A DNA stretch of 64,000 nucleotides from Chiloscyllium plagiosum (GCF_004010195.1 NC_057756.1:4185603-4249602), one strand, 5' to 3'; positions 3,372 to 48,300 are shown, counted from the stretch's first letter. Notes: a model not told the origin generated them from the letters alone. Numbers and translations: made by a program.

Positions 3372-3398
3372 TCGACACTTTGCTTGGAAAGGAGAAAG
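3372..3398 (+). CDS. Micro-exon class C, 27 nt, xDTLLGKEK
   Basis: tttcattacag|tcgacactttgcttggaaaggagaaag|gtaaat; 17/27 nt identical to exon 42208-42234. Confidence 0.8.
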
Positions 3399-6300
3399 GT
3401 AAATTATGTACTCGACAGATGATATCATTTCTGTAGGTTGCAGTATTAATGATTGAGATAAAAGCAAGCAAAAATAAACAATTCAAGCGCAGATGGATGT
3501 CAGTGCATAGAAGACGAATGATTTCATGTTCGGAGTGAGGTGTTCTCGGTTCTGTTGTTCGAATATTCATTAAAATAGTTCATCTCCACATATAGAATTT
3601 GTTCAATCCTTGTGATGATGGTATTAAAAGACGACTTTGAAAATAATTCATTTGTCTGCCGTGGATTAAAGTAATGAGGTGTGGTTCCATTAATGCATAA
3701 AACATTTCATTGTACTTTGGATGCTGCTCATTTGTGTCACGCTTTGAACTAAGGGTTACATCTTTCAGGTAAATAATTTGATATTTGAAATTTGTTAACA
3801 AAATATTTCGTCTGACTTTGAGTTGTCAGAGTTTGACATCGTTTGCACAACAAGAGTTCAAATGAGGATTACTTGAGTACGTTTAAGGTTTATTTTCGTG
3901 GGCACACCGGCAAAACACTTAGTTCCAATAGTGTGTAAGACTCATTAAAATACAACTTTTGTAGTTGTGTCTCTGAATGGGTAAAATCATTCTACTTGTC
4001 TGCATGACCTTCTTCTGAAAGCATGCTATGTTCCTTGACAAACATAAGATGCTCTTACAATACTGCACACCAAGTTTATATTGAAATTCACTGACAATTT
4101 ATGTACCCTCCTTAATTACGTACTTAGATAAAAGCGGAAACTGCAGAAATATTAAAAATAGGACTTTTAAAGATAATGGAATACCTGTATTTTTGTTGAC
4201 GTACTGCGAGTGTGCGTTTGTGTATATTATGCTTGCTTTACACATCTACATAAATAAAAAAACATATATGTGCACACACAATCATGTAAGCATCATAAAA
4301 TGAAATATTAGGTATAGTGAAGATACAAGCATCTGAACAATGCATTGTGAATGCACAATCCTAGAAACAAATGTGTTCAAATGACTCAGTGGTCTGTGAG
4401 TAGAGCAAGTTGCAAAATTATCAAAGTGTGACCAAAGTTAAGCAGGAACATATTAAAGCATCAGATTAAAGAACAAATAAGCATCTAGAAATTGTTTTTC
4501 GATATTGGTCCATTGAAAAAATGGTTAATTTACTAAGTACAAGGACAGAGACAAGAATAAAAAATGCTGGACAACATACTTCTTGCCGAAATTTCCTTTT
4601 GAATAAGCTATTAATTCAGTGTGTTCTGGGGTACAAATGTGAAGGGTGAGCCTGACTACTCGTGAGCATTGTTATGTTCGGTAACAGAGCCAATTTAAAT
4701 AAAGTGTTCGACGAAAATGAGGAGGAAACATTAACATACAATAATATTACTCTTGAAATGATGAAGAGAAAACGAAGTAGGAACATGCAATGAGTCGTAG
4801 TTCAACTAGAGTTTTGAAAATATTAACAAGGTTAGATACAATAAAATTGATCAATAAGGGAAATAAGAACTTTGGTTAAACAAAATAAGAAGATGCATAT
4901 GAAACAGCTGTTGAATGCATGGTTTTCTGAACTAACAGATGTTCAAAAATAAAAATGCATGTACTATCCTTGTAAAAGCAAGTTCTGATGCCTCACATAA
5001 ATTTTCATCGAAAAGTTTTGAGAACTTTTCATAAAAGAATGTTACAATACTGAATTTTCGTAGAAAAATGTCTGTACTGAATGAGATAAAATATGTTGTC
5101 AAGACAGAAACAAAAAAAGATTATGTCAGAATTGTTCTCAGACCGGACAATTTTGGGAAATGTTTCATCAATGGAGCAGTGCGAGCTTTGCTGTAAACTA
5201 TTAAAACAAAAGATGTTTTCAGGATGCAGAAGTATAAAATATTGCACTTTGCTAGAAGACTGATGAAACCGTAATCCAATGCGTAAAATAAATGAAGAAA
5301 GATGGGAAGGTGCTGATTTTAAAAAGAAACACATAGAGATATAAAAGCAATGACGAAATTTATTGTTCAATGACTTATGTAGCAGTTGCACTTTACCCGA
5401 ATGCAAATAGTTAGAATGTACATTAATTACATATCCTTCATATAAACTTTTTTCCAACGAAGTTGGCATAGACAGCGAACTTTCAGTATGTGCAGAGGAA
5501 ATTTAAAGAAATTGTAAGGACACAGTATGTAATATGCATGCAAAGATTGTTTGCAGGAACATAAAAACATGTCGTGTAGCAATTTAACAAGCACGAGTTT
5601 AAGGAGCGTGTAAAGGAGAAAAAAGCCGTTCCGCTGGTTGGTTGTAGAAGTAGAGATTCGTTGCTAGATTGTTCTTTATTTTATTATAGGAGTGATCAAG
5701 AGATCTTGGAACTCAAATGACCATGAGTTTGTAATTAGGAATTGAGTATGCTTGGAAATTACCAGGCAGGACAATTATACAAATGAGGGCGAATAAATTG
5801 TATCGTTTAGCAACTGATGTTAATTAAGCAAGTGTCAAGCAGTTCTATATCGAAGATAACATCCCACACACAAAAAGAGAGACAAACTCTCGGGTGGGCA
5901 AAATTGATTGATACTAGCAATTGTGTGCAGCTGCAGTAATAACTTCATCGGGGAAAGCATGTCTTAAAATTGAGGTTTCCTTCCCAGAGAACCGGAATTT
6001 GAAGAAAGCCTTGGAAGCTAAAGGTGAGAAATATATTAGGAAAACCATCCTTGATCATACAGCTTGCAAGGCCATGAATAAACTTTCAATGACCGGAGAG
6101 TCATTGGAGACTGCAATATTGGGTCAAGATATTTAGTAATTCTGAAATCAGTGAGAGTAGCGAACGAAAGTTCATATTGCTCATCTCTTTCAATCTACAC
6201 ATCTCTGAAACCACTCAGTAAGTTTGAGATTTTCAGAGAATTACAACAGTCCAGATTAATAATCATCTATTTCCTGGAGAAGGATAAACTGATCCAACAT

Positions 6301-12300: not shown

Positions 12301-15300
12301 ACCAAGCGTTCACTCATCCTCACTCTCTTAGTCACTGAACTTGGCTTCAGCATTCGTCTGCATCCTTTTAAGCTGGCTTTCCTGTTTAAATGCCAATTTG
12401 TCAAGTTCAAACTCCTGTTTTTTCTTGTGGTCTTCTGTCTCATTTTTCTCTCTCTTCTCTCTCTGTCTCTCTTGCCTTCTCTTTTTCATTTTGTTCCACT
12501 AATGCGATTTTTTTTTTCACTTTCCGCTGCTTTGAATTGCAATTCAAACAGCTTCATTGCTTTTGTCCATTCCTTGTCTTTTGTTTCTAATTAGAGTTGA
12601 TTTATTTCAAATTGAATTTTAGCCATCTGTAAAAATTCTGCTGCCGTTTCCAACATATTCAAATGCTGAGCCATTGCTGCAATTATCTGTCAGTTCCTCA
12701 CTGAAGGCAGCAAATGCAACTAAAACGTGTCTGCTAATTCCGGACCCTGGACTTAATCACCTTCTACAAAACTTCCAAGTCACTACTTCCACCCCCAGAA
12801 ACACCTTGGTGGATGAAAAAGCCACTGCTATCCCAGGCGCTGCTTAAACCATGCGATTTCAACACCCAGAACAAAAGACTCTCACACCTTCTGTGGCTGC
12901 CTTCGAATCCAGCAACCCTAATCACAACTTGGAATGACAGAATTCCCGGGGGTGTCTCCAATTCAGTATGGACCATATCAGACTTCATGAAAACATTTCA
13001 ATGAAGTCGCCAAGACCCTACCTTTTCCAAGTGTTTTTAGCAGTTTTAATGCAAATATTCCAGGAGGAATGCAGCTGGTCAAACCAGTTAGCTTTAATCA
13101 AAACAGAATATATTGACAAGATTGTCGAATGAAATACAACAAGAGAATAAGTTAACTTATCCGAAAACCAAATGGATTATCCCTAATTACAGTGCTGTTT
13201 CAAATACTTGCAACTATCCCAATAAACATCCTTGGCACAAAAGCTAAAAGCAACAAGATCTTACAGGAGAGAAGTCAGAGAGAATCAGCGTGATCCTGCT
13301 TCTTTGCATCCATCAGCGTTTACAACCGCCTGACTGCTTTCTGTGTAGAGTCGAACTGCTAAAGAGACATCAAATAAAAAAACAAAGCTGAACCTAGACA
13401 ACAGGCAACTTACCCTTGTAACTTGATTTTTTTTTTTACTCGAGAGTCTTTTGCTTGAGTCAGTATCTGTTGGGTATAATCAAACTGGCCCTAAAATCCT
13501 TCAACTTAGACTTTTCGAAGTCTGAGTCTTTTACGAGGTCTCTGAAAACAAAACAAGGACAACATAATATTGTTAATGGAGCATAGTCATCTTTTATAAT
13601 GTGATAAGACGTGTTTCTTTACATATTCAGAGATGTTAAATTCAAGCTCTCATAAATTCTATTTTGTAATGACTCGATTAATACCTTCTTTTAGAACCAG
13701 GGACCTTGATGAAAGCATATGGTGAGTTGTGTTATACAGTATGGGCGCCATAAAATTCAAAAAAAGGTAACTACCGATGTGTGCAGCAATGAGATGCACA
13801 CAAGTACATCCCCCTTTCAAGTAGATAGAAACATTGAAGATTTGGACGTATAACAGAGACGGGGACATTTTGCGGGGAGTATTAATATGTTTGTATATTG
13901 TTGCATGTTGTTGTCAACAGCGAAATCCTCTTTGACTTGAATGTATTGCATGCAATTCCACAGCTGAATATAAACCGTATCAGTCTAACAATCCTTCTCT
14001 GACATTTGCATAATTGTTTTCACGCTGGCCATTATATCTCGGTATACTCCAGTAAATGGCAAGACACTTTTCGCAAAAAAATTTCTTGATCATCTTCCAC
14101 GCAATTATACTGATATGAATATCGTCAAATTATCTGCTGTTTCATTTTATAACAGAATCAGAACTCAACAAATGCAAGAAAGGTATTAAGAAGTCTAAAC
14201 TATCAATTTCAATAGTTCGTCAGATGCCTGTTGCATATTTTAAATTGTGCCCAATTTTGTCTTAACAATGATTAAACTGAAGGTTTCATGGTGTCATTTT
14301 TTTTTTAGTCTAAATTGCAAATAACCGAAGAACTGCGTAAATGTCTGATTAAATTCATGAGCAAACATGCACATAGTTCAGTAATAGGTAAAAAAAAAAT
14401 CAAATTAAACAAGGTAACGAAATAAAAACGCGTGTGACAGACAAATATACATTAGAGTCCAGAATAAAATGAAATGGAACAATTTTCCATTATTCAATAC
14501 ACCGTTGGGCGATGAAACTTTATGACATAACTTTTTCACGGGATGAGAGCTTCACTATATTGAGAAACATTTCCAATTTTGCATATAGCAGTTAAGATTC
14601 AAAACCGTGTAAGTAAAACAGTTTTTTTTTGTGTAAAGGTTTGTTAGTGAACTGACAGTCATTGACTCATACAGCATGGAAACAGACCCTTCGGTACAAC
14701 CAGTCCATGCCGAAAACAATCCCACCTAGCTCTATCTGCCAGAGTTTGGCTCATGTGCATCCAAGTTTTTCTGATTCAGGTGCCTATCTAAATGTATTTT
14801 GAACGTTCCAATTACTCTGGTAGCTCATTCCACAAATGGACCACTCTTTTTGTTAAAAATGTCTCTCGTACCTTTTTCTTAAATCCTTCTCCTCTCAACT
14901 TAACATATGCCCATTAGTCTTGAAATCACCCACCGCAGATAAAGGACACCTGCTATTTACATTATCTAGCCTATCTAGCCGTTGCTTACACGTCAAAACC
15001 TTCATGCCCAGCCATATCTTCTAAACCATCGCCAGCGTAATATCGTTCCTGTATCAAGGCAATCATAACTGGGCACAATACTCCAGAAGAGGTCTTCCTG
15101 CACAACTTAATTTGGAGCTGCATCCATAAGTGCCCCTGTTCTGCTCCGCAGCCAAATGCCTAATTTAACATATTTTAAGTTTTGTCCCTGTTTATAGTCA
15201 GAGAGTCAGAGAGATCTACAGTTCATAAACAGACCCCATGTTCTATCTTGTCCTTGTCGAGCAGATATCGTAAAACTAATCTCATGCCATTGACCAGCAC

Positions 15301-18300
15301 ATGGTCCATATCCCTCTATACTGTACCCATTAATATACCAACTTGGATGCATTTTAAATGTAATTGTACCAGTCTCTACCAATTCCTCTGGCAGCTCATT
15401 CCATACAGGCACCATCGTCTCCTTGAAAAAGAAGTTGCTACTGAGATCTCCTATTTTTCTTACCCCTCTCACTCTAAAGTGAGCGTTCCTCCAGTCTGGA
15501 TTCTTCCACTCGTGGGGAAAGACCTTGTCCATTTTATCCTATCCATGCGCTCATGACATTATAAACCTCTATAAGTTTACCCCTCAGTCTCCAACGATGC
15601 AACCAAAAATCCTAGCTTGTTCACCCACTCCGGGTTGCTCAAATCCACCAACCCTGGCAACATCCTTGTCCGTCATCGCTGAAGCTTTTCAAATTTCCCA
15701 GCATCCTTCCGATGGTAGGGACAAGAGAATTGCACATGACGTTCCAAAGTAGCCTATTGATGCTTGTTTTACCAAAATGCAAAACTTCACATATATCTCA
15801 ATCTGCCATTCTTCTGCCCATTGTTCTAATTCGTCAAGATCTCATAATAAATCTTGGACAACCACCTTCCCCAAACTTTGCTAAATTCTGCAAATATATA
15901 GAGATGTATTACAGGTCTGATATTATGACAGACTTATGAAGGTAGCAGAGAGTAGTTATCTGAAAACATAATAAAAAATGCATTTCTGGTATAAAAGCAA
16001 AAGAAAATGTACTAAATATTGTCTTATGACCAGTATTCACTAAAGTGGCGCATTTGCAATAATACGAAACTAAGGAACCAAGAATATTTCATGCAGAGAA
16101 TAACACATGGCTACAGTTTTCAGCAGAAAGTTATGTTCTAAATTCAAAGTATGCAAAAAATGTTACTGTAAAGCTGGGAAAGTACACTGCGATAAAACCA
16201 ATGAGGGTAATGGAATGGGGCTCTGTGAGCTGCAAGTCGAGCTATTTAACAGAATAATCTGAGGTCTATAAAACTTCACATACAATTTCACTTCCAGCAA
16301 TTGGGATACATAAATGTCTCTTGATCGAAAAGAACATAATTGTTAAGCATGAGTCATTATTTTGCTTTTATCACGTTGATATTCACGTTTATGAAGGGAA
16401 TTAAATGTCACCTGATTGTTGTCATGATTCATGATCAATATTCATTCGAAATTATTCTTATGTTTGTCAATTCATGAGGGGAATTTTGATGTTCCCGGTA
16501 CAGATCTTGATGAAGTCAAAAACACTCTAAAAGAAGCAGGTAATTTTGAAGAACGAAAAAATCCGAAATAAGACACATTTTTTTGTGATTTTTGACGTAG
16601 TTTTACTGATAGAGCATTGTGAATTTGGTAATCACTTCACATACTGACACGTTTTATGCCTGAACATTTACACCAGTAATGTGAGCTATTTTTCTTGTAT
16701 TTTGTCAAAGGTGAACAAAAGCAATGAGCAATTTTAGTGGTACAGAAAAAAAAGATTTCATCCAAAGAATTGTCATTGTTTATGAATTTAACATTTGTGT
16801 ATCAAACCGAGGGTGCTCATACTTTGCTAATATACATTATGGAATTAGAGTTCACAATCAGCGTGGGCATGAAAGTAATCGTGAAAGAACCTCGTGTTCA
16901 GGAACTATCAGTCCCAAACATTACACGAATGTAATTTGTACATCCCTCCTTTTTCGGCTAACCAGAGAAAAAAGGAAAGACAAGATTCAGAGGAGAGGAG
17001 ACAGAGCCTATTGAGAGGAAGGTCAGCAGTGAATGTTCCAGCAGGTAAAGGAGAATGAGCCTGAATAGCTTCTCGAAGCTGTGGTTTGTGAGCAGCAAGT
17101 AAGAGTTGCGAATTTGTAATGGAGCAGAGAGCAACACAAGTTTGAATTTAGTAATAAATTATTTGGCACTGTATGTATTAATTAAGTAAAATGGCTAAAT
17201 ATGGCAGTAGAACTCGATATCATAGTCTGCTTCACTGGCCCGTGTGTGAATCCAATCACTTTTCCATTGTCCACGTGAAAAGAGGTTCTCCAGATGCAAG
17301 TCTGAGAAGCCCGGGTTTCGGAGTTGGAGCAATGTCTGGAGATACTGTGGGACACTCGCGAGGTATAGATTATCTTGGATCTCAGGTTGAGGAAGGAGGT
17401 CACACGAATATCGCAGACCACACAGGGAGGAAGGGAATGAGTGACAAACAAACAGAGCAGGAAGGCTATTCTGGCAATGCATAAAACTCCTGTGGCTATC
17501 CACCAGCTGAAAGGATATACATTTTTTACTATGATATTGAGGGAATGACCGCTCAAGGGACAGCAGCAGCAACCAAATTCATGGCACTATTGTTGGCTCT
17601 TCTGCATAGAAAAGGAGGACTAAGCATAAAAATGCAATACATATCGAGGATTCAGTCATAAGGCAAAAAGATAGGCGTTTATATGAGAGCAAACAAGAGT
17701 CCAGGATGGTGTGCTACCTCCCTGGTGCGAAGGTTCTGGTCATCTCAGAGCATTTTGCAGAACATTTTGGAGTGTGTGGGCGAACAGCCAAAGATCGTGG
17801 TACACATTGGCACGAAAGACAAAAGTTACAAAAATGGAGCAGGTGCTAAAGGCAGAATATAGAAACCTAAGAAGAAAGTTGAAGTGTAGGACCTCAAATA
17901 TAGTCTTTTTTTCAGGATCGGTACCACGAGCTAGACAGAGCAGAAACAGCAGGATATATAGAACGAGCACATAGCTAAAAAGATGGTGTGAGGGGGAGGA
18001 ATTCAAATTCCTGGGGCGTTCGGCTCGTTTCTTGTGGAGATGGGATCTGTACAAACTGGGCTGGTTGCACCTGGGCAGGACTGGGATCGATATCCTTGTG
18101 GGTACATTTCGAGTGATTGGGGAATGTTTAAACTTGTCTGGTGGGGTGAAATGAACAAAAGGAGTAGTGCATTAGATGCAGAAATTTGAGGAAGAGGTAG
18201 GAACCAAGGCAAACATGGCTAATAATCAGAACAGGTAGGGAAATGCTGCTGAAAAGAACAGGGACTGTAGTCTGAAATGTGTGTGTTTCAACATCAGAAG

Positions 18301-30300: not shown

Positions 30301-33300
30301 TGGCACAGTGGTTAGCACTGCTGCCTCACAGCGTGAGAGACCCGGGTTCAATTCCCGCCTCAGCCGACTGACTGTGTGTAGTTTGCACGTTCTCCCCGTG
30401 TATGCGTGGGTTTCCTCTGAATGCTCCGGTTTACTCGCACAGTCCAAAGATGTGCAGGTCAGGTGAATTGACCATGCTGAGACCCGGGTTCAATTCCCGC
30501 CTCAGCCGACTGACTGTGTGGAGTTTGCACGTTCTCCCCATGTCTGCGTGGGTTTCCTCTGGATGCTCCGGTTTACTCGCACAGTCCAAAGATGTGCAGG
30601 TCAGGTGAATTGGCCATGCTAAATTACCCGTAGTGTTAGGTAAGGGGTAAATGTAGGATATGGGTGGGTTGCGCTTCGGCCGGGTGGTGTGGACTTGTTG
30701 GGCCGAAGTGCCTGTTTCCACACTGTAAGTAATCTAATCTAAAGTGGGAAAATTCACTTAAAATTGCGAAGGCACAAAAGCCATGCCAGTCAGTTAAGCT
30801 CGACATTTCCTGTCAAGTGTGAAAGTTATTAAAATTTGTCAATTATTTTTGCTTTACTTGTGTTTATTACAAAACAAATTTCAATGATATTATGTTTTGT
30901 TTTGTTTTTCACAGAGGATAAGTTGCGACAATGTTTAAGAGGTGATTTTCTTTTCTCGAAGTATTCGACTTGTCTCTGTTGATCATTTTCAGTATTTAGA
31001 GTGGACAGACAGTTCTGTGCTTTTCAAACTTCAGGATCCAGAAGTCAAAGAGCTTTTAATACAAACCAGTTATATGGACACGTTTGAACAATAAAAAGAA
31101 AACATCAAAATTTAACATAGTGCAAATTTAAGTAAAGGGTGCAACGTTCCAAAAAGTCAATTACAATATTCCTATGAGTAATGTTTTTGAAGTCAAGGGC
31201 GTAAAATTCCAAATGTACTTTGGTAACCTGAGCCCTATGGAACTTGTCAACATGTTGAAAGACAGTGGGAATAAAGTTGCAGGTAAAGGGGTGTGTATAG
31301 AGTTCATACAATTGAGCTATTCTTCGAGAAGCACGGCTGCTACTTCAAAGTATGAAAACGCACATTATTGAAAATAAGGTCGACTTTGAATGAAGAGCTC
31401 GACATGGTGCGTGTACATGTCCTTGGTATAAACTTGGTAATTTAACGCAAAGGAAGTAGGAGATGTAGTTCCATTCAGAAATTTCCAGGATGCAGTAAAA
31501 ATGTTGCAGACAAAGAAAAATAAACTCTATTGATAACATTAGAAGTGGAATTAGTTTAAAGACAAAGACTGCATTAAAGAATATTGTTACTCCAATTCGG
31601 AAGGAACATAAAATTGTAAAATTGCAAATTGTACTTATATTAGCAGAAAGTTTGTAGCGAACCAATGCGAAACGAATATTCTTAGAAAACAACATTGTTT
31701 TCTTTATAGTTTGCAGTTCTGTGCAAAACAGTTATGGAATGTGTGAAACTGTTTCAGAAAATGTACAAACAGCTGCAATGGTACAGGACAAACGTTACAA
31801 TGACTGCTGATTAAAATTGAAAGGTTTCTCAATGATAAAAATGAAGTAGCTTCGGTAATCTGATTTAATTCAGTAAAGGAGTAGGAATTATTTTCGTTGC
31901 TTGATAGCTCAAGAACCACTGCACACAATTGCCACATATGAAAGACCCAATGTCAGCATGACAAAACATATGTCTATGCTCTGAATATTGCAGCCATACT
32001 ATTGGAAAATAATGGATATACTTGATATCGATGGATTCAACACATTCTGAGAAAAATGGTGTCGAGAAGTTAAAATGAACGATACACACTTCTAAAAGGA
32101 AAAAAAGAAACGGGAGGGAGAGGATCTTTGAAGTGACTCTGCGGAGATTTAGCGTTGGAAAATTAATGTGCTGATTTGTGAATAAACAATTCGTCTTTTT
32201 AAAGGAATTGTCATTAACGCATGTGCTACCATTTGATTTCATTTCAATGCCTGTTATCTTCTCAGAACTGGACAATACATGTAAAACCAATGGTATGTAG
32301 TGAGTGTCATGCAAACTATGTGGAGTAAGTTCCACCTCTTCAAAATTAATATTTAAATCTACATGATAGAATAGCGGGGCACACCGTTCTTCTGAGTAAA
32401 TAATCAGGCAATAATCTGAGGGAGATTTTGCAATGAGTTTGGTCATTGATTTCAATGCAAATTAAAACAAAAAAATGTTTTTAAAAATAGCTGGACGAAA
32501 AGGCAGAAAGTTATTAAGTGTTTGAATACTTCAATGAAACCATACAAAACTCCTCAAATTTCTCCGTCCTTTCAACAATTGCTTCAACATCCCTTTAAAT
32601 TTGATTTCCTTCAAATCATAGTAAGTGGGGCTTCAGCGCACAGGTATTACAAATGAAAGGAATACACAGAAACCACAGATCCACTAAGTAAGGAACGAAA
32701 GCAGAAATTGCTGGAAAAACTTAACAGGTTTTGCACGATCCGTGGAGATTAATCAGAGTTGATGTTTTGTGTCAAGTAACACTTACTCAGAATTTACAAA
32801 TATTTAGAAGCTTGAATATTCAGCCCTTTCACAATGCTGCTATATCAATCTTACCAAAACCTGAAAGACTGCAAAAAACACACTATAAAGCCCGAACTCA
32901 GCACTCACTAAGGCAGAGAAACATGCAATATAGATCAAGCAAATAATGCTGATGATTGTAAACGAAATCTGCTTAAATGTCAACCAAACAAAAATCAGAG
33001 TATAATTCCATTCTTTATTTGCACCACGTGGTTTGCAATTTTGCAGCCATGTTATTATTCAGAAATTTCATTACTCCACATTCCACAGAACAAGAATTCA
33101 GTTCAAATGTTTGCCATCTTTCATTACCCATTGCACACAATGTTGGATCGCAATTATCATTAAATGAATCGTATATCTGCACTATTTTAGATATCTTCAT
33201 TTCTATATGTATAGTTAAATTGAATTCTAAAGCATTTTGATTGGAATCCATGCCATTTCAATGTCCCTCATGTCACAATGCTGCTCCTTGGCTTATTTTT

Positions 33301-36300: not shown

Positions 36301-39300
36301 CCTTCTCTGAGTTCCATCTCTAGCTATTGCTTACTCATATCTATCCTCCATTCCACTGTCAACATATATGCCAAGGTTTTCTCAGTTGAAATCAGTTCCG
36401 AAGGCTAACTGGAACTAAAATATGAACTGTGTTTTTGTTTTATCGCAGATGTTTCCAGACCTGTTGTTTTCTCCCCCAGAAATTGTCTTTTTTATTTCTG
36501 ATTTCCAGCTCATATTTACCTTTTTTTTATGACTTGAGGCAAATTGCTGATCTTGGATCTCATCACACTGAATTGAATGTTGTGTGATTTATGAAATTTT
36601 ACATAGTTTTATAATAAATTCAAACATTGATGATCTTAATTGCGCCAACGGAGTTGCACTCAAGGTTTCTTTCTTGTTGTCGGGCTCCACATGCATGGTT
36701 GTAGCACTGTGATAGTTGACATCCTGCTCCTAGAATCGCCTTTCACACCAATAACACGTTTTTCAAGAAGTGTTTGATGAACTTACAGCAATTTCGAAAA
36801 CACCAACACAGCCAACTGATAGAATGAGTGCAAATTTCTGCGATGAATTGCATGTTGTTGATGAGATCAGCGTTTCATTGCCTGTTTGTGACTGCCCAGA
36901 CGCCAGTTAACATTCAGCTGCAATTGTTATGGGCGTCGAGGTGCATGGAGGCTTGACTGGGGAAGGGTATTATCCTTCTTCCTTAAAGGATATTAATAAA
37001 ATAAATGTTTGTTTTTCCTTTTCCTCACATGGTTCAGGATCATCTCTTCATTCCAGATATTTTGCGAATTCAAATTCCACCATTTGCCGAGGCGTGATTC
37101 GAACCCCAGACATCTGAACATTATCTTGGTCTGAGGATTAACAGTCCAATTATAATCTCACACAGACTACCTCGTCCACTGTTTGATGAAAGTCGTGGTA
37201 ACCCTTTATGTTTATGTCTGTTTTATTATGTTGTCATGTTTGCTAACTAAATCTCACACATTATTTCCCTCATTATTCCAGACGAACGATTGATTAATGC
37301 AAAAGATGGTAAATTCTAGTACTTTATCAAACTGTATTGAGTGCTGATGTGCGTGATGATGCGTTCCCTTTATGAAGGTTACGTTGGCTTTGGTTTCTTG
37401 AAGAAAGATAGTAAAGGTACAGGTACCGAAGAGTAAAGTTCAAAAAATGGAAGGGGAATGGCTAGTTCTCCCAGCTCAGATTATTTTCGATCTAGTTTTA
37501 GCTGTAGCAGTAACAAGATATGAAAGTGCAGTGGAGTAGCAAACTTCAGCAAAGAACTCGTCTGAGATATTTCTGAAATCTCTTTCGATAGTATTCCCTC
37601 CGACCTGTAAGATTCTCTGCTTGAATTTACCTTTATGCCAAGGGGTTTGTTTGTGATGTGTTGCTGTATTGGAGTATTAATTAATAGTAGTTTTTGTACG
37701 GGATAGCTTACGTTTTCCAATAGTTAAAGTATTCGAAATGTTGTTTCTTTTGTTCGTGTTTTAAACGTATTCTTGAAGTAAGTCTTGATTTGCTTAAAGC
37801 TGAGTGGTTTCACGAGCTGAATCACACCTGGAGCACCCATTTCAAATCTGATGTATAATAACAGAAAGGTAGGACCTAGTCTATGACCGAGAAAAAGGGT
37901 TGAGATGGTACATAACCCGTGAAATAGTTATTTCTAGATATTAAGTGACAACTGAATTTCTGTCATCTTGAAATTATCTAGAACTTTTTTGCATGATATT
38001 CATCTTTCATATGGTTTCTTATATCCTGAATTTAACATTGATCTTGAACTGAAACCTTCTAACATCGATCTCATAAACGCAATTCATAGCAAACTAGCAA
38101 TGTTTGTATGCGCATAAATTGAAAGTTGCAAAATAATGCATGAATCGCCATCAAATGCTTCCATTTTCTTGATGCACTGATGAAGTTTAAGAATAATTGA
38201 AATTCTCTTCAATTGATATCACTGATTTATTTTGTTCGAGTCTATGAACAAATAGTTGAAGAAAAATAATTGCTCATGCACCGTTATATGTTTTCTTATT
38301 TCCATCTCCCTAACTGAAACTTTGCCTGTAAATGTTAATGATCCTACACATGCTGAACCTAAAACAGTGTATTGCTTGAAGACCATTTGTAAGAAAGCTA
38401 TAATTTAGGCCCAATAGCGTTCACTGGTTGTTGTTGCTCTAGTCATTTGATATAGTTCCATCTTACACATTCTCACAAGACATACCAAGATTGTCATGAT
38501 AATACACAGAAAACAACAACAAAAAAATGTTTCCAGGGCTTCTTAAAAACTGAAAATGACTGATTTTTTTTTATTTTCTGCAGAAATTCAAAAATTGAGA
38601 AATGATCTACAAGCTAGTAGTAAGAATGTGAATCATTGACTGACATTTAAAATAACTTGAAATTATTTGTGTTTTCACTATCGATTTACGAATCTAACTA
38701 ATGCAGGAAATCTTAACTCATTACTTAACTGAGCAAAACTGATGTGGAGAATTGCAATCATCGAGCCCTCTGCCTCGCTGTGTATTATTTGTGGCAAAAA
38801 TATTTTGCAGTGTTAATGCTATTGCTTATGTTGACTGCCACGTAATTTTTATATTAATCATATTCTCAGAGGACAAAGAATGCAATGGTGAGTAAGATTT
38901 AATTATCAGCTCAGCTCACTTTTATTTTGCGCTTACATTCTTCCATTCACAATTATGTATCAGCATTTGTTCAAAGGTTGCACACTTGTGATCAAAACAG
39001 TCACGGTGTACCAAACATGCCCCAACAGATTATTAACTAACAATGCGCATATGTTTTCAAGAGGTTCCAATTACATCAAAAGAAAAGATCTATATGTTGA
39101 AATATAACATCATCCTGAACACCAATGGAACAGCACAAAATATTTTTCCAATACTAAATGAAAAACTTTAAAATTGCAAATGATGAGTAAAATGTAGAAA
39201 TTTATTCCTCAGATGTCGAAGATCTTCTTCAAAAAACAGGTAAATAATTTGAGATCTGATGTGATCGTTTGAAAAATCAATTTTCTTATCCAGTTAAGGG

Positions 39301-42300
39301 AGAGTAATGCTAAAAGTACATGAAACAATTCTTTCGCATATGTATAATGTGAAGATATTCATTTCTTGAATATTCTTGAAATACTGCATAACACGAAAGG
39401 AGATAATTAAGAATTTTAACAACAGGAGGCGTGTAACACATGTTTCATGAATATTTTATAATAGGGTGCACTCGTAATGTGAGGAATAGGTTAAACTAGC
39501 AGTACAACTTCTTACAGTATGGATCAACAGTAAGTGCATGAATAATTTCTGAAAAAGAAACGCTGTCATATTAATCTCAGTTGTGATGTTTCCTTTATGG
39601 GATATTAATAAGCATTAAATCCATGACTTTTAAAATGAAAAAAATGGGAAAATCCTGTCAACGGTGGAACAGTACATCCATATTAATCATTGCGCATTGA
39701 TCCGAACATTTGCATGAACAAGAAATGTGTTTTTATTCTTGTATTTGCTGAAAAAAAATATATCCGAGCCACAGAATGGCGAACATCACCAAACTTCACT
39801 CAAAAAGCTCCCCTATCCTCTCACAAAAAGAGCTGTGGAATTTTCATGATGGTGATGCCACCTTGGAAATCCATAACAGGCGACCTGCCAAATGAAATAA
39901 CCTTCAATGTGGACCGACTTGTTCAGAACCATTGCGCATAATACTGTAGACTGTTATCTGAAATAAATGGCTGTTGTCCGTAATGGCTCAAACTTATTTT
40001 TATTGGATTAGAAAACATCTTGCCTGTCTTACCATATGTCTCTGGTGGGATTCAGGAAGAGTGGAAAATTGGAACTCAAAGATGACAAAGATTCTGCAGT
40101 CCATGGAATCAGGAATAATCTTTGGAAATGCTTCAGAAGCTCTAAAGGATTTGCAATGTCTACTCGGAAAGAAATACTGAATAGTTAGTGGGTGATGTGA
40201 CTCATTCTCAAAAAAGGAAACAGTTGGAAAAGTTTTTATTTTTAAAAAAATCTGTTCCCTGAGTTAAAGGAATAGTGTGTAGTGCAAATGATGAAGATTT
40301 CCTGTTAAAATAATATAACCAAATTGCTAACATTTGCAAAGACCTATACATAGTACAAATAGGTAAAGCTGTTAGATGTCAACTTGGAAAAAATGATATA
40401 TTTTGCTGTGGAAGGAGTAAATTTTAAAAAATGCTCTGAAACACAATTAATGACAAAGAAATGTGCCCAGCAGTATTCAAAAATAGATGTGGTAAGCACA
40501 GATTTTAAAGCAAAAATGTTTTCTTTTATTGCTTAGACATCTTTAGCATCTTGAAACAAATCACCTTCAGGTTCAACAAGGTGAAGCCAATATAATCGGA
40601 AATGAAATTCAATTAGTCAATCTTCTAAATTGCAAAATTGAACAATCAATACAGTCAGTCATGATTTTAGTTATATACTCCTTTACTTTTCCATGTTTCG
40701 AGGACGTATTTACAATATACAACGCTCACACAATAGTCACGGAAAACACGTTTGCTGTTTCCATGCAGAACTTTATATATACATGTATATTCATATGCAG
40801 CAAATAAGGAACACGAATATGGGTTATGCCAAAGGTTTCTTTATTCACACAATATCAGCATTTGTTATAACTAAGAGAAATTTTTAGATGGTCTTCAATG
40901 TTATTTATTTAACATCTTCAATGTGGTATGGACTGTGATGCTGGTTCTTTTTTCGAGAACAGAACATTCAACAGTGAATTGAGTGCAAATTATCTTTGAG
41001 GTGGTTTTGCAGAATCGTCAGAAAACAGCGTATTATAAAGGAAAAGTTTCCAAAATGCGATCAATAGAGTTGTTCGGCAAAGCCAGGTCAACGACAAGAC
41101 TCAGTCGAACTCTGTCACACTGACGGCATACTTCTGTCAGGTCATGAGAGGGTAATGAATCATAATATACATCGTGATGCAACCGGTGTTCAAAGGCGAG
41201 ATTCATCATGAAGAAAATGAGAAAGTGGATAAATATTGAATGAGAGGTATGGGAAAGAACTGTTGAACTCCACGAAGTGGATATTACTCTTGCCCTTAAG
41301 TGAAAGCATACAAGTTTTGGGACTACATGTATTCCGTGAAATATTTAACAGGGCAATTATTGCTGAGCAGCACATTTTACAATTTGTACGATTTGGTTTG
41401 AAATATAACATTTAATAATGTGCAACAGTGCACAATTAAAACATTGTAACAACAAATTATTGGTTGAAAGTAGGGGATGTCCCTCATTGCATAGTTATTT
41501 CGAAAGAAATTGAAGAGCAGTGTCACCCGAAGAATAACAGGAGAAAAAGAAGACAAATGTTTCAAAATGCTTTTAAATACTGATGGCACATACGACCTGG
41601 TATAGATAAAACTTGTGTCGTTTTGTTGCTAAGTACTTCCAAACGTACAATGTATGCCTATTTTGATGTAAATCAACAAGTGCCGTTGACAATCTTAGGA
41701 AAAATGCAGAGGTATTTAGGGATAGGTTGTTCTGCAAATTCCTGAAATTACTGTACACGCACTCAATCAATTAGCCCGAAAGAGTTGCTGAGATGAACCG
41801 AAATGAAAAATAAATTATATTTCCTCTGGAACATGTTATTAAGGATAACAAATTAAGAAATGTGTCAACCATGGGATACATTACTGAGCAAATATAAGAA
41901 AAAGAATACGATTTCTGACTCTCAACTTACATTATCAAAACACTAGATACCTTGATAAATGCTTAATACTTGCTGAAGTTTAAAGAAAGAAATGTTAAAT
42001 TTTAGTTAATTTTGCATGATTTCTTACGCTATTCATGATTCCCGTACTTATGAGGCCTACATTGCTTCATTGTTCCAAATTTTATAAGGTAGTTTTCAAA
42101 CTGAGTAATACTATTTAACATTTTATGCAAAGTGTTTACTTTGTGCAATCGTGAGTTCAGTCGTTTCAGACTATCATCGAGAAATTTAATTGTTCCCTGT
42201 TTTCTAGCAAGCAGATTGCTCGATAAAGAGAAAGGTAACCATATGACATATCCGTCTGCAGCCTTATATGAATTCTAAGAATATGACGACCCTAAAAGTG

Positions 42301-45300
42301 AACAGCAAAGTATAATTGCATTAATTTTTGGAACCCATCGTTAAATTTATGCAGCAAGCTAAAGTAATTTTCCAGATAAAATGGCGCTTATTTTTGACTT
42401 TCTTCTTTTATGATGATAATCATCATCATTGTTTTTCCTATCTTTTATATTAGAAGTAATTAATTTGCAGGCACTGAGCGCCGTTGTCTGTCACAATTTG
42501 TAGCCTGTCTAGTTACGCATTTGAGAAATGCAGTTGTCAGCTCCATTACTGTATTCCATTTGCTGTAGGTGACTCCACAGCGTCGGTGGGGATGGCAATG
42601 TAATATGTTAGCCCAAATACCCAAATGGTATTTGCATGTCAGCAAGGTCTTTGGGTTGTTGGAGAACGTTCAAGTGACGGTATCCCCATGTATCTCTTCC
42701 TGTTATCCTTCCAGAATGAAGGATTTATGCATTTGCAGATGCTGTTTAACTAATTTGACTTATTTTTGCAGTTCCCCTTGCAAACTGTACACGTTGATCC
42801 TATGAAGTGTCACTGGCACAGTAACGAAATGGTTATAAATGTGATGCCAAACGAGAACGCTGTATTTTCATGTGTGATATGAATCCTTGTTAATGACGCT
42901 GGAGCTGTAGCTATCCAAGCTAATGGGGAGTATTCCATGACAATGCACCCTTGTAATTTCTTGATTGTGGTCAGTTGTTGGCCATTCAGCTGAATTACTT
43001 ACTGCAGCGTTCCTAGTCTCTGCCATGCTCTTGTAGGCATTGTGTTTAACTGAAAAGTTCAGTTCTGTCTGCGAATGGGTAGTCACGATGAAAAGCTCAA
43101 CATGACTACCATTCACCAAACATCATAAACCAGTTATTTGTTGTAAATGATGTGGCAGGGGAATGACATCGAAATAAATTTATGCGTCTAATTTTACCAC
43201 TACCAAAGGAGTAAACATACTTTTAACCATATAAGATGCATGCCATTCGCCATCCAAACTATACATCTTGATGTCGGACTCCTGCTCTCTCGACTAGAAA
43301 GCATACACATTATTTTGGTCAGGTCCAGACACAGACAAGTTACCCCTCCCCAGTATTTGTACCCAGCTTGTACAGTTCCGGACATATGGAAAATTCTCAT
43401 TGTTGACTCGATAAACTTTTACCCATTAAGACATCTCGCCCTCCCCTGCATCCCTTCCATTCACTCAGACATGAATTTCCATTTCATCAGCTCATTATGC
43501 AATGCCTCTTCATATTCCCTGAACTGAACAGAATAATCATGTAGAAATCGACAACATTTCCACATCGATCCAGACACAACAGCCCTTCCCATAATTAATA
43601 CAAATCCGCTCCTCTGCATCAGCATCGACAATAAATGTACATTCAACCATCTGGACAAAATGCAATTTGCATTGCGCGAGAACATCCTATTTCCTATGCT
43701 CCAGCCCATTCCTTTCTACTCATGCTTCAGGCCAGATGATCCATAAATCGCATTGGAATTGATCCATCTTCTCCCCATCTTCAAAAGCCACACCCATTTG
43801 AAGTACTAACCATAAATCCAAAGCATGACATCTCCGATATTAAGCATGCAGCCATCCTCGTCCTCTGCAACTTCTGTTTAGCCCGCTTGGACATGTTATT
43901 CACGCACAATCCCCATCTTCCTTAAGTGGTTCTTGAAGATGCAGGGCTCCTGGAGCATTGCTCTTTTGTGTCCTGCTGCAATAATTTGTAGTTTCCTGCC
44001 CAGTGTCACCCTAACAAGTTGCACCTAGCACTGATTAATTGCCATCTTGCTCACTTGGCAATTGCTGCCCTACTGGAAAGCTATCAACAATCCAAGTTGC
44101 CATGTTGGAACATGACAATTGTCGCAAAGCTTGTCCCTTTTTTTCCCCGAAAAACTGTTCCTCTTTCTCAAGGATAATGTGTCCTTGGCTTTTTTTTTAA
44201 TGTCATAAATGGGCCGGGGTCCACTTAGACTATTTTGGTACAGAAATGAAAGTATTTTGAGAGGCCTTTTATTTATATGTAAACAGAAGAGATTGCAGGC
44301 CAAAATGGTCATGCTTTAGAAATGACCTGTAAATGGAAGTGGAGTGGTCAACTCTCTAGCTGAATAGTTCAGTCCAGATCTAGTTACGATTTCTTCAGTA
44401 AGCTGCGTGGGGACAAAAAGGCTTTTGCTCTCCGCCTGCCCTTCTAACGTCAACCTGGAAGAATTTGTTCACTTTGTGCTGTGTTTTTAGGGGGTTTGAA
44501 CTCTGTGCATAATCTGAACAGCATAATTTAGTCTAATTTGGATATACTGAGTTCTATAGGAGTTCTTAAATGTGTTCTTAATAATTTTTTCTCAGTTTTA
44601 AATTCTGTTAGTAAACTTTACTAACTTATTCTCTCCTTTTCAATTTACACTTACTAAAACATGTTGCAAAGTTATGGTCTCAGCTGGCTGCTTAAGAATG
44701 TGTTGAGTGGTTTGGCCGAGTCCATACAACTAACAATGTGAATAACGACTTTTCTGGCACATCTCGGAATCTTTCAACAGATCTTTAGGTAATCGTCACT
44801 GAAGTTTCATAAAGGGTTTAGATATTACATACTTCTTGAAAGATTACCACGAAAGCTTTCATATCAACGTCTGGAATGTCCAATTATGATGGTTAAACGC
44901 GCGAGATAATTCTTTAGAACAAACCTAGACAGGTAATGGAAGTGACAATTGAAAACATATTCTGGTGCTTGAGATCACAATATTGCATTTTCAGAATTGT
45001 TACGGAAAGAAAAAAAGAGCGAGAATGAAAAAGACGTTTGGATTGGTCAAACTCCCAGATCCCCACAGGATCCCCCCACAAGTTCATAGTGCACAGCCAA
45101 TGAAATTACTGTCTTAAATTACTATCTCATTTTGTTTTTAACACATAGATGAAATTATGAATAGGCACGTCAGTATTGAGTTGGAAAGAAGAAAAGACAA
45201 GTTTTGCTTCACTCGAATAATTTTGCTTTGGATTAAAACAGGACATGATATCATGTTCTCAATAAAATTATTTCTACTCTCCAGAAATACGGAAATTAAA

Positions 45301-48300
45301 AGATGACATGTCTAACAAAGGTAAGAAAGATCATGAAACATATGATATAGTGAATATTATTCGATACGTATATGGATATTTATATGACTATACTGGTAGA
45401 GTGCAAATTGGGCGTCAAAAGCTGATTTCCTGGAACAGCACAGCTGGTCAGGCAGCATCCAAGAAGAAGGAGAGTCGACGTTTTGAGCAAAGGTCTTTAT
45501 CAGGAATATGAGGGGAAGGGGAAAGGGGACTGAGAGTTAAATGGAAGGGGAGTGAGACTGGTGAAGATAGCTGGGAATGAGATAGGTAGATTAAGGTGGA
45601 TGTTAACGGCATTTGGTCAAATAGGAGAGTGGAGCGGATGGATTGAAAGGAGGATGCGGAGATAAGAGATTTGAAGAGGGCAGTGCCGAATTGGAGTGTC
45701 GCATATGGGATAATGTGGGGAGAGGGTAGATGAGGAAACTGGTGAAATCATCCATGATCCCGTGTAGTTGAAGTGTACCAAGGTGGAAGCTGAGGTGTTC
45801 TTCTTTCAGGTATCTTTTGGTTATAATTTGGCGGTGGAGGAGGCACAGGAATTGCACGTCCTTGGCAGAGAGAGAAAGAACGTTGAAGGAGTCGGCAACA
45901 GGGCTGTGAGTGTTTCGTCTATGTGTCCCAGTAATGTTCTCTGAAATGTTCGGCCTGTTGTCGTCCTATCTCCTCAACGTAGAGGAGACCACATCGAAAG
46001 CAACAGACACAGTATATGAGGTTTTTGCAGGTGCAGGAAAATCTCTGTTGAGCGTGGAAGGATCCTTTGGGTACACTTTCTTCTATACTGACAAAGTGAG
46101 CAATACAATATCTTTAAAAATGAAAGAAATAAATTAAGTCATAACAGGAAAACCTAAACAAATCATACAAGAACCATTTCGGAATAAAATATTCCTTCAA
46201 TTTTGGACGACGGGATTCACAGATGCAGACACATGTTTATTGTTTTCCTTTTTATTCTTTTATGGTGCCAATATTAAGTGGTGATCATCGCTACATTGAG
46301 TTAGATTTCTTCAGAGTTTGAGTGTATTGCTCAATAACACATGATGAATGGGTAACAGAACTGTTGACATGGTACATCTTTGTTGAAGGAAATCAATGCC
46401 TGTGTGGTGGCAGCGAGGATTTCATTAATATGAACTGCAATGTTTTGTTTGATGCTGTTTTTCACGGATGTTTCAGTTAAGTCTTTATTTTACAATTAAG
46501 GTGTTATTTATTAAAAAAATACTGAAGGTAGTGGAATTTGAAACTTCATGAGTGGGTAGCAGTGTGACTTGAGTGCATGGGCACAAGATTTCAATTGTGT
46601 GTTATCCCACTCCGGTCATTAAACAATGGCATCGCCTGAACTGTGTAAATAGCGAAATCAGAGGTGGTAACTTCAATAAATATCAAACAGGCCATGCCTC
46701 GAATTTTCTTGGTCATAAATTCATAGCGATGTCAGCACGGAAATACTGTACAGTATTCTTCTGTCCAGATGCTTCCTGTCATAGCTATCCTAACCTATTC
46801 CTATTTGTCAAAACGTAGTTCATGCCCCTCTCAAGCCTTTCTATTCACATACCCATTAGTTGCCTGTTAAATGTTGTTACTCTACTAGACTCCAAAACTT
46901 CCTGTAGCACCTCATTCCACACAAGCACCAGCTTCTGCATGAAACAGTTGCCTCTAAAGTCACTTTTAAATCTTTCCCCTCTGAATCTCAACCTTTTCCC
47001 TGTGGTGTCTTATGTGAACAATTCTACACTTTGTAATTTAGTGTTCTCAACTGCAGGTATACTGGGATAAATTAGCAACGGGAACGGAATGATCTTCTGT
47101 AAAAATCTTTGGCACTACACGTTGAATATTACCATGTGTCTTTGATGTCTTCAACTCATTATTATTTCCAAATATTATGTCGGGTGAATTACGTTTTCTA
47201 TTTCTGTCGGGGGAAAACCTGTGAAATGAAACGAAAACGAATGAAAGAATGCAACATCTCACAAAAGATGTTTATGTAGGAGCAGGGTTGCATTTAGCAG
47301 GGCTATTGAAGTGTTTGAATTGATTAGGATGGCGTTAGTTTTCTACTTTTATATTCTTACAACATGGACGCAGGCCCTTTGGCACAACATGTCTATGCTG
47401 AACATATTTCCCAAAGAAAATAAGTCCCACTTGGTTGCATTTAGTCCAGATCTCTCAATCTCTATGCTATTCATTCACCTTTCTCAATTTATTTTGCATG
47501 TTGTACCTGCACTTTTATCTACCACTTCCTGTAGCAGATTTCTTTTACATTAAAACTAAACTCTTTTGAAAAGTTTGCACCTCACGTCATTTCAAAATAT
47601 TTCACCACACAGACAAAAATAACTCCCAAAATGTCGGGAAGACACCTCTGCTATTCACCTTATAGAGTCATAGCGTCATGGAATCAGAGAGTCCTCCAGC
47701 ATGGAGATAGGCCTTTGGGCCCAAACAGGTCCATCCTGCTTAAAATGCCCATTCACGCTAACCCCATTTCCTTGCACTTGGGCCATAACCTTCCAAATAT
47801 TTCCTGTCCATGCATTTGTTCAAATGACTTTTAAATGTGTTTAATGTATATACATCTATCAGTTCTGCTGGCAGGCCATTCCATACACATATAACACTCA
47901 GAGTAAAAGAAAGTTGGCCCTCAGTTTACATTGTATTCGTTCGGCTGTAACTTTAAACTAATGTTCTCTGATCCTCGATTCCTGAAACTTAGGAAAAAAG
48001 ACTGACTATATTGACCCTTTCGATTTCTCTCATGATCTTATACACTTCTATACGTTCTCTCCCCAGTCTTCTGTGTTATAATGGAAGACGGTGGAGTTTA
48101 TTCCCCCTCTCCCTATAATACATTACGCTCAGTCCTGGCAACATCTTTTTCAATTTCTTGTGCACTCTTTCCAGTTTAATGTCATCCTTCCGACAGCAAG
48201 GTGAACAAAACTAATCAAAATATTCCATTTGCGATCAAAAATGTACTGTTCTATTTCAACATGACTTCAAAACGTCTGTACTCAATGCTCTGACCGATGA

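Follow-up and report, generated by a model that had tools for sequence, protein, structure and literature searches.

The cytoplasmic tails of chicken BG proteins are described, in the part of PMC4046983 devoted to them, as α-helical coiled coils encoded by tiny symmetrical exons of 21 (sometimes 24) nucleotides (nt), of which there are 13-36 per gene, and the same portion of that report ascribes to butyrophilins "a few cytoplasmic heptad repeats" together with IgV/IgC ectodomains. The B30.2 domain is presented, in passages of PMC2657112 and PMC4046983, as the part of TRIM and butyrophilin proteins that binds ligands. The present analysis concerns a stretch of 64,000 nt from Chiloscyllium plagiosum, C47:4185603-4249602 (hereafter the window, from whose start micro-exon positions are counted), which contains heptad-encoding micro-exons and lies within an array that extends far beyond it on both sides. 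The locus probably represents a ~609-kb plus-strand gene on C47, in which the micro-exon array encodes a coiled-coil rod leading to a terminal B30.2 domain and which belongs to a chondrichthyan family. That the exons themselves are real, coding and symmetrical in phase 1, and that they build a heptad coiled coil, is supported by their length, strand, frame and order.

An ordered array of coding phase-1 micro-exons

A preliminary description of the window had reported twelve symmetrical phase-1 exons bounded by AG and GT, and all twelve were reconstructed from the window sequence. Eleven of their acceptors read CAG and one TAG, each preceded by a pyrimidine-rich tract, and GT follows every exon. 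Seven exons are 27 nt long, four are 36 nt and one is 18 nt, and together their 351 nt join in phase 1 into a stop-free frame of 116 full codons plus split ends. The leucines said to fall at positions 9, 16, 23, 30, 37 and 44, counted from the exon at 5988, were found at exactly these places in the joined peptide. The rod peptide is rich in K/E/L/D, and Cys recurs in an EL..C...L motif.

The same description took these exons for a gene of 12 exons and 117 residues, which proved too small, the window being the middle of the array. Exons of the same type occur throughout C47:4085603-4349602, from the first kilobase to the last, in the window and the 100 kb fetched on each side of it. They were also present in 10-kb probes at C47:3.96-3.97, 4.04, 4.08, 4.35, 4.40, 4.475 and 4.569 Mb, while no array exon was detected in the 10-kb probes L026 (C47:3.886-3.896 Mb) and L029 (C47:4.55-4.56 Mb). 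In total, 57 micro-exons were detected in the 344 kb sampled on C47. The distance from the first detected exon, at C47:3,968,430, to the terminal exon, whose stop codon lies at ~4,578,016, is 609,068 bp, and extrapolation over this span, of which all but ~265 kb was sampled, gives ~100 exons and a coil of ~1000 residues for the whole array. The whole array is uniform in strand, phase and exon types, and exon density is low over its last 100 kb. Downstream of the window the alternation of 36- and 27-nt exons is almost strict. One such pair amounts to 63 nt, 21 residues or three heptads, and the proposed 27/36-nt exon code is genuine, both lengths being enriched.

The enrichment was apparent in a generic length test, in which splice rules alone, with no coding filter, were applied to the contiguous 264 kb formed by the window and its two flanks. 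On the plus strand, 27-nt candidates numbered 21 and 36-nt candidates 19, compared with ~7.5 for each of the other lengths (12-63 nt), and the minus strand yielded 5 and 8, respectively. A detector built from splice position weight matrices and residue composition, with a training set of 32 exons, returned 38 plus-strand and no minus-strand hits at scores of at least 18, a contrast that is partly circular in the contiguous region, where 32 of the 44 exons had been used in training. The probes and the generic length and frame tests are free of this circularity. Exons foreign to the training set were recovered by the detector in the contiguous region (12) and, on the plus strand, in the 80 kb of separate probes (13); minus-strand hits in the probes amounted to one of 15 nt and a further one in L026, which lies outside the array. 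In the frame test, made with no open-frame requirement, 43 of the 44 high-scoring units were open in phase 1, a single unit carrying a stop codon, versus 1128 of 1935 (58%) random AG..GT 27/36-mers in the same phase, and the 44 chosen exons were open in only 16 and 21 cases when read in the other two frames. A loose composition filter, which gave 15 plus-strand phase-1 hits versus 2-13 for each remaining combination of strand and phase, is unconvincing because AT-rich DNA supplies many K/E/N-rich micro-frames.

Exons of 9 and 12 residues are not multiples of seven, and the heptad register consequently depends on the order in which they are joined. Hydrophobic pairs straddling the junctions peak at spacings of 7, 14 and 21, with counts of 30, 37 and 34, and also at 11 and 18, with counts of 25 and 26, compared with 7-17 at neighbouring spacings. 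Over the 264 kb, the combined count of pairs at 7 and 14 was 67 in genomic order versus 42.4 ± 6.2 in permuted order, a value reached by 0 of 5000 permutations, and for the window's 13 exons, among them one additional to the original twelve, it was 18 versus 10.3 ± 3.1 (P = 0.012). The argument that chance splice-like sites would not keep the heptad register holds in so far as these cross-junction spacings beat the permuted order, but gains no support from one global register, where the 12 exons scored 13 versus 11.3 permuted (P = 0.22, not significant) because the rod has local skips, of which the 18-nt exon marks one. Taken together, these micro-exons form an ordered, coding series under selection.

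As 41 of the 44 exons end in G, the codons at 40 of 43 junctions encode E (24), D (7), G (5) or A (4). Mean pairwise identity reaches 0.43 among the 27-mers and 0.47 among the 36-mers, whereas random genomic segments give 0.26 and composition-matched shuffles 0.31-0.32, and the 100-nt intron flanks display likeness at the shuffled level, with the exception of one pair. Exons that are alike between randomised flanks indicate that the duplications are old and that only the exons have been kept. The array also contains a recent 6.5-kb tandem duplicate, at C47:4301723 and 4308199 (L017:2121 and L017:8597), with local flank scores of 77 and 80 of 100. The two 36-nt exons of this duplicate pair differ at 5 bases, 4 of the changes being non-synonymous (including S>C, E>K and I>T), and only one of the copies has the EL..C Cys.

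The window exons are all on the plus strand and in phase 1 (first residue, completed at the junction, in parentheses; detector score last). The 27-nt exons comprise those at 3372..3398, (x)DTLLGKEK, with cag before and gtaaat after it (26.9); 14156..14182, (E)SELNKCKK, in which the EL..C core-Cys motif is present (20.3); 30915..30941, (E)DKLRQCLR (29.1); 32266..32292, (E)LDNTCKTN (21.9); 37282..37308, (D)ERLINAKD (23.1); 39213..39239, (D)VEDLLQKT (20.2); and 42208..42234, (A)SRLLDKEK (26.5). The exon at 32266, a 27-mer following a 27-mer, is the least typical in the set. The 36-nt exons, each contributing 11 residues after the first, extend over 5988..6023, (E), with cccag before and gtgaga after it (29.4); 16504..16539, (D) (24.0); 38584..38619, (E) (21.3); and 45285..45320, (E) (29.3). 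The third of these has an alternative donor that would make it 33 nt long, and its final base is A, all other window exons ending in G. The 18-nt exon at 38870..38887, (K)DKECN (25.1), marks a register skip. A thirteenth exon, of 30 nt, at 52660..52689, (G)KLKEDLLDA (22.8), was absent from both the preliminary description and the training set.

The introns hold remnants of reverse transcriptases from long interspersed nuclear elements (LINEs), which in the window match RVT_1 at 11015-11386 (-), 22645-23007 (+), 50103-50534 (+) and 54834-55196 (-), and the window's alternating GC skew follows from introns that are largely retroelement debris. A run of 333 N bases (24735-25067) is located inside the plus-strand open frame 24594-25970, of which 25068-25970 matches RVT_1; this LINE copy sits in the 14-kb intron between the exons at 16504 and 30915, and the N run may hide an exon. 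The Pfam scan of the window's open reading frames identified no cellular domain of any kind, in agreement with the earlier statement that the window contains no Ig, B30.2 or lectin exon. In the flanks and probes, 150 of the 181 plus-strand frames of at least 88 residues were scanned, revealing only RVT_1, RNase H and a GDSL esterase beside reverse transcriptase, and within these two scans no long coiled-coil frame, Ig or other domain interrupted the contiguous 264 kb. The GDSL-type esterase frame (L002:4042-4647, +; E = 1.8e-9) is ~1.6 kb upstream of an RVT_1 fragment (L002:6268-6612, +); some LINEs carry an esterase domain in their first open reading frame. An acidic frame at 59949-60155 was considered as an exon and rejected: it is a (GAA)n microsatellite of ~140 bp (59990-60130) encoding poly-E/K/R, with low-complexity Pfam hits. 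The frame at 48215-48583 (+; 122 residues), in an array intron, matches CaKB, a BK-channel beta subunit family, at E = 6e-4 and 20 bits, below the 25.1-bit cut-off; its translation is unconvincing and the match is probably due to chance.

The terminal B30.2 exon and its chondrichthyan relatives

A genome profile search revealed a SPRY match at C47:4577660-4577983 (+; 65.7 bits), the only one near the array among the 150 of 293 candidates scored. It is contained in a B30.2 exon located 328 kb downstream of the window (L030:9100-9617, starting at C47:4577499), a 177-residue open frame that ends in a stop codon and matches Pfam SPRY with E = 4.9e-18. The acceptor reads ttttgcag/TC, and the first two bases complete a split codon (G+TC = Val), so that the exon is entered in phase 1 and any micro-exon joins it in frame. 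A 36-nt array-type micro-exon (L030:804) lies 8.3 kb upstream, and the window exons are presumably spliced to the B30.2 exon. C47 carries two further exons of this B30.2 subtype, at 994524-995036 (+) and 1296629-1297150 (-), both 41-42% identical to the elephant-shark protein described below; they probably belong to paralogous genes, perhaps with micro-exon arrays of their own. Elsewhere, at 9-34 Mb of contig C37, well over 100 SPRY and B-box exons are clustered in a very large TRIM-like expansion.

When the B30.2 exon was used in a word-indexed search, the longer proteins that it matched were all distant TRIM/bloodthirsty proteins, with 27-35% identity. The closest match of similar length was chiPu_0007878, a "hypothetical protein" of Chiloscyllium punctatum that consists of B30.2 only (59% identity), and its identity to the exon was the highest seen across the sequence searches made. 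In an exhaustive HMMER search, the closest single-domain hits were P0051, P0013, P0010/P0156 and P0017, all chondrichthyan where named (P0017 and the representative P0010 are nameless). They include XP_055510696.1 "TRIM69-like" from Leucoraja erinacea (P0156, in the cluster of P0010; B30.2 45% identical), XP_038668997.1 "TRIM39-like" from Scyliorhinus canicula (P0013; 42%) and XP_042192744.1 "nuclear-pore anchor-like" from the elephant shark Callorhinchus milii (P0051; 1697 residues, B30.2 at 1501-1697; 41%). The suggestion that such a gene is missed by annotation is borne out by the nearest relative of similar length, a B30.2-only model, but not by the elephant shark, for which a 1697-residue model of the same architecture exists.

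XP_042192744.1, an older version of which is XP_007898089.1 "myosin-2 heavy chain-like", is the longest public model of the family. Its N-terminus comprises MD, 15 hydrophobic residues and RAKRRKK, followed by ~1150 residues of K/E/L-rich coil and then by a B30.2 domain ending in ISIV, as in the C. plagiosum exon. The coil displays heptad autocorrelation peaks at 7/14/21 and contains eight EL..C motifs; it is broken at ~895-1010 by a perfect (DKDPTGST)n repeat, the source of most cross-hits to other C. plagiosum contigs. Hydrophobic neighbours at -3 and +4 accompany 9/13 and 8/13 Cys residues in C. plagiosum and 10/17 and 16/17 in XP_042192744.1, compared with a background of 0.21-0.22, which places Cys at the core "d" position of the heptad in both species. 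The spliced C. plagiosum peptide aligned to the elephant-shark coil with 40 bits (E = 3.4e-5, 32% identity over 191 residues), the best of 50 shuffles giving 23.5 bits, a match of modest weight because coiled-coil sequences align easily. In residues 331-890 of XP_042192744.1, residues with G-initial codons follow a path of 33 steps of 9/12 residues, 1000 shuffles giving at most 21, and this path would fit the same exon structure. A search with residues 1-330 matched only the elephant shark's own two models (P0051/P0157), for which PF00622 is the sole precomputed Pfam family.

The skate protein XP_055510696.1 is a complete small version, with MN, 13 hydrophobic residues, ~90 residues of coil and B30.2, and the coil of the family thus ranges from 0 (the B30.2-only model) through ~90 residues (skate) to ~1150 (elephant shark). 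Aligned B30.2 domains of five members share 29 invariant columns of 205, including SDPRF-type, WEV, LWN and FYN motifs, and end in ISIV in four of the five, the catshark member having LTVM. In the ESM Atlas, clusters of SPRY proteins of 1277-1802 residues bear automatic names derived from coiled coils, one of them "isoform X51", and serve as leads only; no Ig family reached a share of 10% or more in these clusters. The chondrichthyan models share with the C. plagiosum gene a B30.2 domain of 39-59% identity, the SDPRF/WEV/LWN/FYN/...ISIV motifs and a coil directly before B30.2, but they are predicted models with misleading automatic names, and none is by identity an orthologue. The preliminary description could not assign a family to the gene. 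With a phase-1 B30.2 exon located downstream, outside the window, assignment becomes feasible: judged by its EL..C...L coil and B30.2 subtype, two of three defining features (the third is a short hydrophobic N-terminus with no other domain), the gene belongs to a chondrichthyan coil-B30.2 family.

Proposed architecture and alternative readings

In the favoured reading, all array exons and the B30.2 exon would constitute one transcription unit. Spliced consecutively in genomic order, they would produce a two-stranded parallel coiled coil of ~1000 residues and ~150 nm, with B30.2 at the distal end of the rod, held far from the membrane as a ligand-binding head. An N-terminal anchor would leave the rod and B30.2 in the cytosol, similar to the topology of butyrophilin and BG tails. 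The acidic start of XP_042192744.1 and the basic cluster that follows its hydrophobic segment fit this orientation, as, according to the positive-inside rule, a basic flank and what follows it face the cytosol. As every exon begins and ends in phase 1, the reading frame survives whichever exons are included, while only removal of a 36+27 pair keeps the heptad register, making 21 residues the natural splicing quantum. Cassette splicing of 63-nt pairs would therefore change rod length with frame and register intact, and the length of the protein could be tuned by alternative splicing. A bolder version, which is unlikely to hold as a whole, would see here an undescribed class of innate sensor or tether: an N-anchored, dimeric coiled-coil "ruler" of 150-200 nm with B30.2 at its far end, its reach set by splicing in three-heptad steps and its rod made redox-lockable by the core Cys. 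No larger array of heptad micro-exons would be known, and the form might be related to a pre-Ig or Ig-less ancestor of the butyrophilin/BG tail.

Several observations weigh against the one-gene, cytosolic-rod reading. The array and the gene are described here from genomic sequence, and a gene boundary may lie inside the array, given the ~265 kb outside sampling and the exon-free probe L029. Core Cys at "d" suits an oxidising, extracellular site better than the cytosol, and the hydrophobic N-termini of the relatives, at 13-15 residues, are short for an anchor and could be cleaved signal peptides. Upstream sampling reached down to C47:3.968 Mb and included the probe at 3.886-3.896 Mb, so that Ig or RING/B-box exons may lie in the 70 kb between them (3.896-3.968 Mb). 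The 33-step path in XP_042192744.1 could stem from a 21-residue sequence repeat instead of exon borders, and the corresponding 9/12-step path of junction residues in the joined C. plagiosum peptide extended over 12 steps and was not significant (P = 0.118). To these are added the partly circular strand contrast of the detector and the modest weight of the coil alignment.

Among the alternatives, a secreted or lumenal rod survives best, and is possible though doubtful. In this case the signal peptide would be cleaved, and a parallel dimer with interchain disulfides at the core Cys would display B30.2 heads for humoral recognition in a collectin-like build. Parallel coiled-coil dimers can form interchain disulfides at core "d" Cys, and Cys occupies that position in both C. 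plagiosum and the elephant shark. The hydrophobic regions, of 13-15 residues, have the length of those in signal peptides, V-T-A/V in XP_042192744.1 fits the -3/-1 rule for cleavage, and extracellular modules are typically encoded by symmetrical phase-1 exons. However, signal peptides usually carry positive charge ahead of the hydrophobic segment, which the starts MD- and MN- do not, and a strongly basic cluster lies right behind the hydrophobic segment of XP_042192744.1. In addition, the B30.2 domains of butyrophilins and TRIM proteins are cytosolic, as stated in parts of PMC4046983 and PMC2657112.

A true butyrophilin/ERMAP-type gene would have its leader, IgV (IgC) and transmembrane exons in the 70 kb upstream, the array being a hugely expanded cytoplasmic heptad region; we consider this unlikely. 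The phase-1 heptad micro-exons and the phase-1, single-exon 3' B30.2 match such a design, and the first residues of XP_042192744.1 resemble a transmembrane segment with a basic stop-transfer sequence, in which case the model could be truncated. Cartilaginous-fish butyrophilins with variable heptad numbers are reported in a portion of PMC12841164. C47 also carries many B7/butyrophilin-type C2-set_2 exons, at least 13 of them at 5.69-10.2 Mb together with one V-set exon (10206275), so that this 10.7-Mb contig looks rich in B7 and butyrophilin genes. At 3.89-4.58 Mb, by contrast, no C2-set_2 match was found among the 150 of 302 genome candidates scored, and no Ig frame was present in the window or in the 150 flank and probe frames scanned. 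The V-set list (150 of 1319 candidates scored) is filled by other loci and weighs neither way for this locus. Two independent relatives, the elephant-shark protein (P0051/P0157) and the skate protein (P0156), start with Met and a hydrophobic segment and have only SPRY in Pfam, and the long-SPRY Atlas clusters, in which no Ig family reached the 10% share noted above, likewise argue against this reading.

It is quite improbable that several genes are involved, with the window exons in a BG-like unit devoid of B30.2 or in one of at least two tandem genes, the short initial and final exons of which were overlooked. The sampling gap, the exon-free probe L029 and the low exon density of the last 100 kb are compatible with such a division. 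Moreover, first exons in this family are short and undetectable by Pfam, and the two further B30.2 paralogues on C47 indicate that the family does duplicate. Nevertheless, the array has a single SPRY match nearby, the contiguous 264 kb is uninterrupted by domain-bearing frames among those scanned, strand, phase and exon types do not vary, and the elephant-shark protein, with a coil of more than 1000 residues on one B30.2, shows that a very long rod is a normal state of the family. Chance splice-like sites, a dispersed repeat or an unexpressed relic, which could draw on the purely genomic nature of the evidence and on the ease with which AT-rich DNA yields K/N/E-rich open micro-frames (the 15 versus 2-13 hits of the loose filter), are very improbable explanations given an excess specific to length, strand and frame, a heptad register dependent on exon order, conserved exons between randomised flanks, an intact terminal B30.2 exon and a stop in only 1 of 44 units.

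Comparison with lectin, TRIM, butyrophilin and BG designs

No published description of this coil-B30.2 family, or of so large an array, was found in a full-text literature search from which subscription journals were excluded. The family is apparently undescribed in print, although predicted models of relatives are public and its kind is thus not wholly new. The locus pushes the heptad micro-exon principle from the 13-36 exons of 21 nt in BG genes to ~100, by extrapolation, over ~600 kb, and its 36+27-nt module illustrates how the length of exons, the phase of introns and the periodicity of a protein can be coupled. It also brings to light a protein family of cartilaginous fishes, with a hydrophobic N-terminus, 0 to more than 1000 residues of coil and B30.2, that databases list under names including "nuclear-pore anchor-like", "myosin-2 heavy chain-like" and "TRIM39-like". 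In addition, the locus bears on the immunogenetic question of how the B30.2 and coiled-coil cytoplasmic module of butyrophilins, BG and TRIM proteins originated. For gene annotation it constitutes a stress case, with micro-exons 5-15 kb apart in LINE-filled introns, of which pipelines appear to keep the terminal B30.2 exon only.

A type II C-type lectin with a CD23-like stalk, which the 63-nt unit together with the core Cys had brought to mind, was rejected: a whole-genome Lectin_C search in which all 133 candidates were scored gave 115 matches, none of them on C47, and the window frames contained none either. The best named look-alikes of the shark B30.2 domain in sequence and fold are TRIM/bloodthirsty/A33 proteins, and class IV TRIM proteins resemble the gene in having a coiled coil before a single-exon B30.2. 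They differ in possessing RING and B-box domains, neither of which is present in the models of the relatives, and TRIM coils are ~100 residues long and are not known to derive from micro-exon arrays. Enterophilin, too, combines a leucine zipper with B30.2. For the locus itself the B-box search is uninformative: the list is filled by other loci, and the 150 of 312 candidates scored included no match on C47. Identity of the shark B30.2 to named butyrophilin and TRIM proteins is ~27-35%. Membership in the butyrophilin, BG or TRIM groups is not established, as neither this locus nor the models of the relatives yielded an Ig, RING or B-box domain.

The analogy with butyrophilins, ERMAP and BG drawn in the preliminary description nevertheless holds for gene design, with micro-exon heptads and a downstream phase-1 B30.2 exon. 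Similar to the butyrophilin/ERMAP arrangement, heptad micro-exons precede a single-exon B30.2, phase-1 entry having been checked for the shark gene alone. In contrast with that arrangement, the shark gene has an extrapolated ~100 exons of 27/36 nt and no Ig domain found at the locus or in the models of its relatives.

The resemblance to the chicken BG tail, as set out in the corresponding part of PMC4046983, lies in one heptad-based unit per exon, in an exon number that varies among paralogues and in in-frame introns that allow variants. BG proteins, however, have an IgV ectodomain and no B30.2, whereas the shark gene has a B30.2 exon and no Ig domain was found for it. BG exons measure 21/24 nt, while those of the shark gene measure 27/36 nt, two exons making up three heptads, and would number ~100 by extrapolation over ~609 kb. 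With its different exon size and its B30.2 exon, the shark gene is not a BG gene, although it would work like a BG tail.

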